DNA from: a virus
Lineage: Duplodnaviria > Heunggongvirae > Uroviricota > Caudoviricetes
Length of the DNA: 6,030 nucleotides
Reading direction: 5' to 3' (one strand)
Virus record (IMG/VR): IMGVR_UViG_2711768069_000002
Shown here: positions 4,187 to 5,853 of the stretch, piece after piece
How the letters are laid out: every line of letters begins with the position of its first letter
Position numbering within the stretch: position 1 is the stretch's first letter
The notes under the pieces: model-generated
Seen by the model: the letters and a program-made list of their open reading frames with translations, nothing else
What the model was told of the DNA's origin: nothing
The model's database searches: none
Program-made: the position numbers and the translations under genes

Positions 4187-4740
4187 GCGAAATTAATTAT
4201 CAGGCACTGCGTGAAAAGGCAGAAAAAGCAACTAAAGGAAGCTACATCGTAGGGCATACATCTGTTAATCGGCATGGCAATTTAACAGGAGTTTTTGTTT
4301 GTCAAAAATGGAAAGAAGAACCCGGTGGTGTGATTGCGGAATGTCATGTTAACTGCCTGGTTGAAACAGATGTTCAGGCTTATGCAAACGCTGAATTTAT
4401 TGCTGCTTTTAATCCAAATGTTGCGCTGGCACTGCTGGATGAACAGGAAAGGAACCAGCAATACATCAAACGCCGCGACCAGGAGAACGAGGATATTGCG
4501 CTAACGGTAGGGAAGCTGCGTGTTGAGCTTGAAGCAGAAAAACAGCGGGCAAAAGTTCTATTTATGGAAAATGCTCGGCTTAAGTCAGGCATAGCCGGTC
4601 TGATACACCTCGGTATTCGATATGCAGATGTTGAGGTCATGAAAATTGCTGGAGATGCCCAGCTTTCTACTCCATGCACTGACAGCATCATAAACAGCAT
4701 TGCAGCAGGCATTTTCACCAAAGAGGGGGCAGCACGATGA
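4183..4740 (+). CDS. ea22: Ea22-like early-left protein, 185 aa, mosaic
   Basis: Start overlaps the upstream stop. The N-terminus MSEIN.QALRE and the central LALLDEQERNQQYIKRRDQENEDIALTVGKLRVEL segment resemble lambda Ea22 as I recall it. The segment between them and the C-terminus differ from lambda. Confidence 0.75.
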   Translation: MSEINYQALREKAEKATKGSYIVGHTSVNRHGNLTGVFVCQKWKEEPGGVIAECHVNCLVETDVQAYANAEFIAAFNPNVALALLDEQERNQQYIKRRDQENEDIALTVGKLRVELEAEKQRAKVLFMENARLKSGIAGLIHLGIRYADVEVMKIAGDAQLSTPCTDSIINSIAAGIFTKEGAAR

Positions 4741-4880
4741 GAACACTAGAGGTTCGCGCTGAAGACGTAATCCCTGGTGATGTGCTCATAACATCTAAAG
4801 GTCAACAATGTGCGGTTAAATCTTTTTGGATGGAAAATGACAAAGTGACTTCAGTTCGGTACGGATGGTTCCGAAACTGA
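4737..4880 (+). CDS. Candidate small protein, 47 aa (MRTLEVRAEDVIPGDVLITSKGQQCAVKSFWMENDKVTSVRYGWFRN)
   Basis: Below the ORF-track cutoff. ATG 4737 overlaps the TGA of the Ea22-like gene (ATGA), suggesting translational coupling. No homology recognised. Confidence 0.4.
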   Translation: MRTLEVRAEDVIPGDVLITSKGQQCAVKSFWMENDKVTSVRYGWFRN

Positions 4881-4922
4881 TTATGACTATGACGAATTGC
4901 TTGTTATTGAGAGAGCTGCCTA

Positions 4923-5345
4923 ATGACCACCTTTACCAAAGAACAGTTAATCTCCCATGCACGCGAAAGCGTTAGTTATCTGGAAAACTTGAAAGGACGT
5001 GTTAGCAAAGAAGGTGCGGACTGCAAAGTTGTTATTGAGATGGTTGCACGAGATCTAAAACTGGCACGAATTGCACTGGCCTCGCTGGAAGCAAAACCAA
5101 TAGGTGCATTCCACATTGCAGAACAGCAAGTTGACGGCACAAGTGACTACATCAAGGATGGGGAATGGCCTATTGATAATGGAATTATTGAGGTCTACGC
5201 CGCTCCCCCCGTTCCAGTAGTACCGGAAGAAAAACCAATGCCTAATCCTCTTAGCATGTACGCGGTTGATGCTGTTGCCGCTATTGCAGAGGTGAGAGGC
5301 TGGAACGCCTGCCGCGCTGCAATGCTTCAGAGAAAAGGAGAGTGA
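4923..5345 (+). CDS. Hypothetical prophage protein, 140 aa
   Basis: Long ORF on the operon strand; its stop is 1 nt before the next gene's start. It has a Pro/Val-rich linker (AAPPVPVVPEEKPMPNP) between two halves. No recognised catalytic motif. Confidence 0.7.
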   Translation: MTTFTKEQLISHARESVSYLENLKGRVSKEGADCKVVIEMVARDLKLARIALASLEAKPIGAFHIAEQQVDGTSDYIKDGEWPIDNGIIEVYAAPPVPVVPEEKPMPNPLSMYAVDAVAAIAEVRGWNACRAAMLQRKGE

Positions 5346-5346
5346 T

Positions 5347-5853
5347 ATGACCACTATAACCGATAAGAAACAGTATCCAGGCGAGCAATATCTTAATGAG
5401 CTGATCACCAACATAGAGTTTGCGGCAAGGGCACCAGTTGAAGTCGTGAGAGCGATGGCAGCAGAGCTACAGAAGCGGCGCGAAGCTGATAGTGCAGAAC
5501 CTGTAAGCCAAACTTACAAGTTAACTTTTGAGCAATGGCTGGAACAGCAGCACGGCAAAATTGATGTTGATTGCGGCTGTGTGAGCACTGAAACGCTTCT
5601 GCACTGGATGCGTGTGGCGTATGAGGCTGGCAACTCTCCGGTAATTCCGGATGGTTGGATAAACTGTAGTGAGCGAATGCCGGATACAAAAACAGCCGTT
5701 CTTGTTGCCGTGGAGTTTGGCAGGAAAGGTGACTGGCGAATGAAATGGGCGACTTACATCCCGGGGCATCCTGACGCTAATGATGGGTGGATAATTCCTG
5801 GTGCGTCGTGGAAACCGTCACACTGGATGCCGCTACCAGAGCCTCCACTTTGA
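5347..5853 (+). CDS. Hypothetical prophage protein with DUF551-like C-terminal domain, 168 aa
   Basis: AAGGAG (5334-5339) then ATG 5347. The C-terminus …GWINCSERMPDTKTAVLVAVEFG…WIIPGASWKPSHWMPLPEPPL resembles the W…ERLP…VLV…HWMPLPEPP pattern I associate with DUF551 phage proteins. This is a memory-based call. Confidence 0.7.
   Translation: MTTITDKKQYPGEQYLNELITNIEFAARAPVEVVRAMAAELQKRREADSAEPVSQTYKLTFEQWLEQQHGKIDVDCGCVSTETLLHWMRVAYEAGNSPVIPDGWINCSERMPDTKTAVLVAVEFGRKGDWRMKWATYIPGHPDANDGWIIPGASWKPSHWMPLPEPPL

Follow-up and report, generated by a model that had tools for sequence, protein, structure and literature searches.

Three consecutive genes of a lambdoid prophage early-left operon are probably cassettes of a shuffled Ead/Ea22 and EaA/DUF551 gene pool

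The stretch of DNA analyzed here (the window, to which all positions refer) comprises the whole of a 6,030-bp contig from E. coli (CYFY01000119.1; GCA_001284365.1; IMG/VR record IMGVR_UViG_2711768069_000002), and its content is the early-left (pL) operon of a lambdoid prophage. At positions 4737-5853 it has three consecutive open reading frames (ORFs) of 47, 140 and 168 amino acids (aa), which the original prediction had read as a tightly coupled functional module, possibly serving host interaction or anti-defence. Our results indicate that these ORFs are probably three consecutive cassettes of a shuffled Ead/Ea22 and EaA/DUF551 pool in the exo-xis array of the pL operon (the 'ea' array of P22) and not a dedicated three-part unit; the stretch as such belongs to the known EaD/EaA/Ea22/DUF551 accessory pool, as an ordinary member and a rare recombinant. 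All three ORFs are genuine coding sequences, since purifying selection was apparent on all of their segments, with ratios of nonsynonymous to synonymous polymorphism (pN/pS) of 0.08-0.40 in pooled pairwise comparisons with relatives.

The evidence that carries this assignment is that the pieces of the three genes occur independently of one another. The segments of the 140-aa protein (A, B and C) and of the 168-aa protein (N, middle and DUF551) were searched for in 80 viral loci with relatives of the 140-aa protein, and each was found at 90-100% identity beside unrelated or strongly diverged neighbours. The small ORF was present in 5 of the 80 loci and the full arrangement in 2, both of which are identical to the window. 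In an architecture census of viral contigs, 62 distinct proteins had one or more 140-type segments with an identity of at least 80%; DUF551 followed in the same chain in 31 of these and was absent from the other 31, among which the next ORF had DUF551 in 9 cases and was without it in 18, and the small ORF stood upstream of only 3 of the 62. The 5,426 complete E. coli genomes gave a similar picture, with the small-ORF region identified in 86 of them, parts of the 140-aa gene in 840 (at least 80% of the gene in 25) and parts of the 168-aa gene in 1,302 (at least 80% of the gene in none). At least 80% of the trio was found in none of these genomes and in none of 50,697 phage records. The recombination breakpoints lie inside genes and not at the edges of the proposed module. 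The original prediction had suggested a co-occurrence check across prophages and had named independently occurring homologues as the result that would speak against a functional module; since this is what was found, and the three genes do not co-occur across diverged genomes, the module reading is not supported.

The close spacing of the genes had been the visible sign of a module, and most of its details were correct. The TGA stop of the 140-aa gene (5343-5345) is one base ahead of the ATG at 5347, and an AAGGAG ribosome-binding site is at 5335-5340, six bases ahead of that ATG. Tight packing holds, however, for the 140/168 junction only, as the 47-aa and 140-aa ORFs are separated by a 42-nt gap (4881-4922), and while the ATGA overlap at 4737-4740 exists as described, the gene whose stop overlaps the start of the 47-aa ORF is the upstream 185-aa ea22-like gene, which is outside the proposed module. 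Comparison with other loci suggests that the tight 140/168 junction is itself a generic joint of the gene pool. Its core, AAAGGAGAGTGAnATG, is a family-wide Shine-Dalgarno/stop/start sequence, and the longer AAAGGAGAGTGATATGAC was found at 26 places in the fetched loci with differing upstream and downstream partners; aligned to L003 and L002, the joint is a homology island of ~30 nt amid unrelated flanks. Tightly packed genes in the lambdoid exo-xis region are thus no evidence for a module, the packing being due to a generic cassette joint.

The joint also bears on a protein motif, as K/RGE is found at the end of all Ea22 proteins, its significance being described as not known (Dydecka et al., PMC7093339). 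The 140-aa protein likewise ends in RKGE followed by the stop, and these residues are coded by AAAGGAGAG, a stretch that serves the following gene as Shine-Dalgarno sequence; no K/RGE end is present on the 185-aa or the 168-aa protein. Among 64 distinct ORF ends in [KR]GE plus stop, 57 had an ATG within 0-3 nt after the stop, as compared to a nearby ATG at 596 of 1,605 other ORF ends, a comparison set that includes spurious ORFs. The sequence at those 57 ends was almost always AAAGGAGAGTGA(T/G)ATG, and the genes that follow are many and diverse. The ea22 gene of lambda ends in AAAGGAGAGTGA too, without a gene after it (NC_001416 at ~29847; L131 1048-1060, minus strand). We offer the reading that the K/RGE motif could be the translated ribosome-binding site (AAAGGAGAG) plus the TGA of the conserved joint. 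Besides the joint AAAGGAGAGTGAnATG, in-frame recombination of segments was evident at the short conserved motifs LARIALASLEAKP, VYAAPP, AAMLQ, PDGWIxCSERMP and HWMPLPEPP.

The first of the three ORFs is a common 61-aa ORF in a rare allele with a +1 frameshift. The 47-aa ORF aligned to positions 1-38 only of the 61-position phrog_15283 (E-value 1.2e-26), a one-base insertion was located near 4849 when the window was aligned to the 96%-identical phage-plasmid L001, and tblastn identified the C-terminus of the 61-aa form in the +1 frame at 95% identity in the window-identical loci. The intact frame would reach a TAA at 4921-4923 that overlaps the ATG of the 140-aa gene at 4923 (TAATG); the frameshift ends the ORF before this overlap, and the ancestral stop/start coupling of the first and second genes is therefore broken in the window. 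Among viral contigs, the 61-aa form is in frame in L060, L063 and L064, and the frameshifted form was found only in the window-identical loci. In a collection of 15 billion proteins, the exact 47-aa protein was present on 33 contigs and fell in a cluster of 4 members, as compared to 66 members for the 61-aa cluster, single alleles of which were on 498, 551 and at least 1000 contigs. A programmed frameshift was considered and rejected, based on the logic that the site (ACTTCAG versus ACTCTG) is not slippery and that the in-frame 61-aa allele is far commoner, and sequencing error was rejected because independent assemblies, with 33 contigs in all, and replicons of two types share exactly this allele. 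The 47-aa protein matched no Pfam family at E-values up to 1 and, despite occupying the position of eaI, had no similarity to P22 EaI. The 61-aa ORF resides mostly on phage-plasmids of ~110 kb: 84 of the 86 complete genomes with the small-ORF region had it on plasmids. Fusions within the family are made and broken by frameshifts at joints; in L001 (plasmid pOkiPb01698_2, positions 2473-3186) the 61-aa ORF is joined to the ea22-like frame by an extra T just ahead of the ATGA, and the annotated fusion protein has 237 aa.

The 140-aa protein corresponds, by alignment, to the N-terminal portion of EaA-type DUF551 proteins. Its residues 1-98 align to residues 1-78 of P22 EaA (32% identity, E-value 1.4e-5), including the MTTxTKE, LARIALASL and xYAAPPVP motifs, so that the MTTxTKE...LARIALASL...YAAPP N-terminal module of EaA-type proteins is present. 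Relatives that are 93-97% identical to the whole protein are mostly 205-234 aa long and have DUF551 directly after AAMLQ, one of them being P0026 (234 aa, 454 contigs, DUF551 at 145-229), and the representative of the 90%-identity cluster that contains the 140-aa protein is also 234 aa. The 140-aa protein matched no Pfam family, and thus no DUF551, at E-values up to 1, and it ends where its relatives begin DUF551. Shorter forms of this kind, without DUF551 and ending in AAMLQxKGE plus stop, were identified at 72-79% identity in many backgrounds (P0064, P0092, P0104 and P0106). A Pro/Val-rich linker, which had been noted from the translation, is indeed present (AAPPVPVVPEEKPMPNP, aa 93-109). 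The AlphaFold2 (AF2) model has helices at 6-29, 35-56 and 114-138, with low confidence for 61-95, and a fold search of BFVD with this model found nothing. The pN/pS values over the segments of the 140-aa protein were 0.08-0.31, the lowest being that of segment B (0.08 at a pS of 0.35, 34 distinct alleles), which is the strongest constraint in the region; the core at aa 59-96 may fold only upon partner binding or oligomerisation. Among 1.84 billion representative proteins, 806 clusters at 50% identity were identified at E-values up to 0.001, and these share mainly residues 43-137 of the 140-aa protein, variably placed in proteins of 73-408 aa.

Segment comparison shows the 168-aa protein to be chimeric, with an N segment and a middle segment ahead of DUF551. 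The DUF551-like C-terminus that had been recognized by eye was confirmed, as PF04448 matched aa 103-167 over profile positions 1-67 of 68 with 72 bits against a cut-off of 22 (E-value 7.7e-20). This protein is 46% identical to residues 231-317 of P22 EaA (E-value 2.5e-16), and the matching DUF551 part is annotated as 'EaA protein' in Shiga toxin (Stx) phage records. The AF2 model reached predicted local distance difference test (pLDDT) values of 70-83 on the DUF551 part only, and Foldseek against BFVD with the model returned only other DUF551 proteins; pN/pS over the segments was 0.14-0.26. The EaA N-module and DUF551 are thus not within one polypeptide in the window, but in two ORFs joined as TGA-T-ATG. 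One relative, P0204 (269 aa), has in a single chain segment C of the 140-aa protein together with both the N segment and the DUF551 of the 168-aa protein. Paralogy of the N-termini of the 140-aa and 168-aa proteins was considered and rejected, given that the high profile-profile (hhalign) score was driven by DUF551-bearing rows of alignment A2 and is not independent.

The profile searches that had been recommended identified DUF551 for the 168-aa protein and PHROG 15283 for the 47-aa protein, and gave no functional assignment for any of the three. This agrees with the prior statement that none has an assigned function, as NCBIfam, PADLOC and the PDB were empty and Pfam and PHROGs gave only families of unknown function. 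Specifically, no NCBIfam match was found, no PDB match by sequence at E-values up to 1 for the 140-aa and 168-aa proteins, and no PADLOC-DB 2.0 family at E-values up to 0.1 for the 185-, 61-, 140- and 168-aa proteins. The Ead/Ea22 family PF13935 (gathering score 27 bits) was matched by the 185-aa protein only, at 120.8 bits, and not by the 47-, 140- or 168-aa proteins.

The rare combination in the window appears to have a recent origin. Positions 4425-5846 are 99.86% identical to L013 over 1,422 nt without gaps, and L013 is probably a P1-like phage-plasmid based on its gene content, which includes phd/doc-like, HumD-like and theta-like genes and several tandem Ead/Ea22 paralogues. To the left this shared block ends within the coiled-coil part of the ea22-like gene, to the right in the last codons of the 168-aa gene, an arrangement that points to recent exchange of a 1.4-kb block with a phage-plasmid. 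Consistent with this, the ea22-like gene, which is also 79% identical to P22 EaD over 42 aa, is a chimera with a 5' part of lambdoid type (4183-4537, 92% identical to L003) and a 3' part of phage-plasmid type, which belongs to a longer stretch (4525-5507) that is 96% identical to plasmid L001. At slightly greater distances the arrangement is already different: in L012 (98%) the third gene is without DUF551, and in L001 (96%) the small ORF is fused to the ea22-like gene and the DUF551 gene has another body. The alignments suggest that the trio is together only in one recent lineage, derived from a single homologous exchange. Larger tandem arrays of Ead/Ea22 and DUF551 genes, in which as many as three Ead_Ea22 genes follow one another, were observed in L012 and L013 (both Logan contigs) and in E. 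coli plasmids of ~110 kb. Because almost all complete-genome copies of the 61-aa ORF sit on phage-plasmids, these look like the main reservoir of the cassette pool.

By position and similarity, the locus is the counterpart of P22 eaD-eaI-eaA-eaG, except that two ORFs take the place of the single EaA-type gene. The two loci share the pL position between the recombination genes and xis/int as well as the order of an Ead/Ea22-like gene, a small ORF, an EaA-type gene and then, in relatives of the window, the 59-aa Eag. They differ in that P22 EaA is one polypeptide of 317 aa with a long central insert, whereas in the window its two ends, described above, are in two genes and the second gene has gained an N-terminal segment of its own. 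The proteins of the region had no BLASTP match to P22 EaE at E-values up to 1 in a comparison to which HK446 gp27 did not belong; an anti-OLD protein related to P22 EaE, Oad2, is found in the same hotspot (bioRxiv 10.64898/2026.07.10.737580). A further parallel is Ea22, the variants of which are mosaic, one of them with DUF551; the protein is a pro-lysogenic tetramer whose stalk is helical and whose C-terminal domain is variable and portable (PMC10834534, PMC7093339). Like Ea22 of lambda and Stx-phage variants V1-V3, the trio is in the exo-xis region and is modular in build, with an N-terminus that varies, a part that is helical or coiled-coil and a C-terminal domain that can be swapped; variant V2 bears DUF551, and the 140-aa protein has the same K/RGE end. 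In contrast to Ea22, the 140-aa and 168-aa proteins have no Ead_Ea22 Pfam domain, which is in the 185-aa protein upstream, and the pro-lysogenic phenotype is known for ea22 itself and not for EaA-type genes. Another DUF551 prophage accessory protein from a multi-gene cluster is YfdS, encoded by the cryptic prophage CPS-53 of E. coli K-12, the likeness being one of shared domain. Multicopy yfdQR together with yfdS or yfdT inhibits replication initiation (PMC4776307), and loss of yfdS leads to H2O2 sensitivity, as cited in that paper. The neighbours of YfdS, however, are YfdQ (DUF2303) and YfdR (HD domain), which are unlike the window genes, and the DnaA-binding partner there is YfdR, not YfdS (PMC4776307). 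Lastly, lambdoid phages have been proposed to recombine at boundary sequences that are short and conserved (PMC3029335, citing Clark 2001 and Susskind & Botstein 1978). AAAGGAGAGTGAnATG and the in-frame motif joints resemble these sequences in being short, conserved, near module boundaries and between unrelated flanks, and differ from them in that many joints in the window are inside genes, at domain boundaries, and not between genes.

Three other explanations were weighed against the cassette reading. That the ORFs are a dedicated co-functioning module, for example for anti-defence or host interaction, with packing that reflects stoichiometry, now seems highly improbable. It would be in keeping with the ORFs following one another on a single strand, where promoters and terminators inside the stretch did not exceed chance (the same negative result applies to RNA elements and repeats within 4737-5853), with the presence of the block in the second context of L013, and with the occurrence of anti-defence proteins such as Oad2 in the same hotspot of other phages. 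Counting against it are the independence of the pieces in complete genomes, the fact that relatives of the 140-aa protein are rarely preceded by the small ORF, the dissolution of the arrangement in L001 and L012, the ends of the exchanged block, which do not coincide with the module edges, the frameshift that uncouples the first gene from the second, and the lack of any PADLOC match or of similarity to EaE/Oad2 (P22 EaE being the protein compared). Nor is it at all likely that the stretch is decaying cargo, i.e., recombination debris in a defective prophage that is non-functional in this lineage. The frameshifted 47-aa ORF, a premature bet stop by which the last five residues are lost relative to L004, the insertion that breaks the operon shortly downstream and a 140-aa protein without the DUF551 that most close relatives have could all be taken as decay. 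Yet the forms without DUF551 that end in AAMLQxKGE plus stop in many backgrounds argue that the short form is maintained, the low pN/pS values given above for the segments of both larger proteins run counter to loss of function, the 140-aa and 168-aa ORFs are intact with good ribosome-binding sites, and the frameshift allele has survived at least one transfer between replicon types.

The remaining explanation, which we consider unlikely, though less so than the other two, is that the 140-aa and 168-aa proteins would act as a two-chain EaA, a hetero-oligomer formed via helical N-termini, with the 47-aa ORF as a bystander. In favour of such a pair, both parts occur in the single-chain relatives P0026, P0204 and P22 EaA, the AAMLQxKGE-plus-stop end is followed by an MTTITDKK-type gene in 22 of 22 exact-joint cases, the strong Shine-Dalgarno/stop/start joint would couple translation, and a DUF551 gene is next in 9 of the 31 relatives without DUF551. 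Against it, the next ORF is without DUF551 in twice as many of these relatives (18), the N segment of the 168-aa protein is also found upstream of, or fused to, 140-type segments (L056, L081), and the N-terminal similarity of the two proteins is a weak alignment, the hhalign score coming from the DUF551-bearing rows.

Several points nonetheless weigh against the assignment of the trio to a shuffled cassette pool. The trio does travel together in one recent lineage and in two genomic contexts, which is compatible with co-function. The pairwise comparisons underlying the pN/pS values are not phylogenetically independent, and the role that the joint may have in recombination is deduced from the homology islands. 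Confidence in the AF2 models is modest (mean pLDDT 67 for the 140-aa and 61 for the 168-aa protein), and pLDDT falls below 50 over aa 61-95 of the 140-aa protein, its most conserved segment. Finally, a function of the trio proteins in lysogeny control is proposed by analogy alone.

The context of the trio, a hotspot distal to exo and ea22, was as predicted (Table 1). The gene order of the window is N, a 156-aa ORF, cIII, kil, gam, bet, exo, DUF1317, DUF1382, a 71-aa ORF, TraR/DksA, the Ead/Ea22-like gene and then the trio; the upstream genes from gam to Ead/Ea22 are those of the lambdoid exo-xis region, and the TraR/DksA zinc-finger protein is of the lambda orf73 type. The trio is a polycistronic continuation of the pL operon, with stops and starts 0-1 nt apart behind a strong ribosome-binding site at the joints. 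The 168-aa gene is, however, not the natural distal end of the operon, as had been supposed: in relatives without the insertion sequence (IS), a 59-aa Eag/Lar-like gene, a 66-aa gene and int come after the DUF551 gene, and in the window the operon is truncated by an IS66-family element, present in place of the eag-like and 66-aa genes and of the int end. This element comprises the last 116 bases of the window, starting 61 nt past the stop of the 168-aa gene, and probably explains the break of the contig at that point.

The window is 99.95% identical to L004, a chromosomal contig of 5.29 Mb. One of only three single-nucleotide differences between them is a C>T at 2537 in bet (1769-2539) that changes a Gln codon to TAG, and as a result bet encodes 256 aa in the window and 261 aa in L004, with loss of the ATGA overlap with exo. 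The Rfam family Lambda_thermo (the cIII thermoregulator RNA) was identified at 1102-1160 (88.5 bits), upstream of and overlapping the cIII start, where it is expected. The 156-aa ORF (454-924) is between N and cIII; in related loci it has no recorded Pfam match, and some relatives have an Nmad5-domain gene there.

Table 1. Positions of the genes, protein segments and other features in and around the three-gene stretch of the 6,030-bp window
Feature	Position	Strand	Basis or description
Ead/Ea22-like gene, 185 aa (P22 eaD / lambda ea22 equivalent)	4183..4740	+	Pfam PF13935, 8e-35
47-aa ORF, +1 frameshift allele of 61-aa ORF	4737..4880	+	PHROG 15283
Out-of-frame remnant of 61-aa ORF C-terminal coding region	4881..4923	+	tblastn, alignment to L001
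140-aa protein, EaA-type N-terminal portion without DUF551	4923..5345	+	Relatives, P22 EaA, AF2
Segment A of 140-aa protein	aa 1-58	+	Helical hairpin
Segment B of 140-aa protein	aa 59-96, window 5097-5210	+	Highly conserved core
Segment C of 140-aa protein	aa 97-140	+	Pro-rich linker, GWNACRAAMLQ helix, RKGE and stop
Cassette joint AAAGGAGAGTGATATGAC	5334..5351	+	Shine-Dalgarno (read K-G-E), TGA stop, one base, ATG of next gene
168-aa DUF551 protein (EaA C-terminal type)	5347..5853	+	Pfam PF04448
N segment of 168-aa gene	5347-5505	+	Common to phage-plasmids up to 5507
Middle segment of 168-aa gene	5506-5646	+	Segment comparison
DUF551 domain of 168-aa gene	5647-5850	+	Common to HK620 hkaE, 933W, L003
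IS66-family element end	5915..6030		100% identity to L004 and L010, IS66 transposase genes next there

We speculate that the early-left transcript would be translated by re-initiation at the joints, which would then be a translational-coupling signal and also a micro-homology at which cassettes are exchanged, possibly by way of the neighbouring Red (bet/exo) system; Red is reported to promote recombination of diverged sequences (PMC2327257). By analogy to Ea22, the proteins might form an oligomerising helical stalk that presents a swappable DUF551 or a conserved peptide to a host target, and might in this way modulate the lysis-lysogeny decision or host physiology. A bolder extension, and one that we regard as rather doubtful, is that the EaA/Ea22/DUF551 pool is a combinatorial cassette system in which the 140-aa and 168-aa proteins would be a two-chain effector against a host defence or replication factor. 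Equally speculative is that its parts (helical oligomerisation stalks, a constrained core peptide and DUF551 domains) would be reassorted by phages and phage-plasmids via the joints. If this were true, the combinatorial cassettes would constitute an arms-race repertoire like Oad2 of the same hotspot.

For the interpretation of such loci, the cassette reading removes a false lead, in that tight packing in the lambdoid exo-xis region is not to be read as a functional module. It also offers an account at the level of DNA for the K/RGE motif of Ea22 proteins. Since exchange takes place at the sub-gene scale, functional studies should treat segments, not genes, as the units, and the EaA/DUF551 pool to which these segments probably belong is one that is traded between lambdoid prophages and phage-plasmids of ~110 kb.

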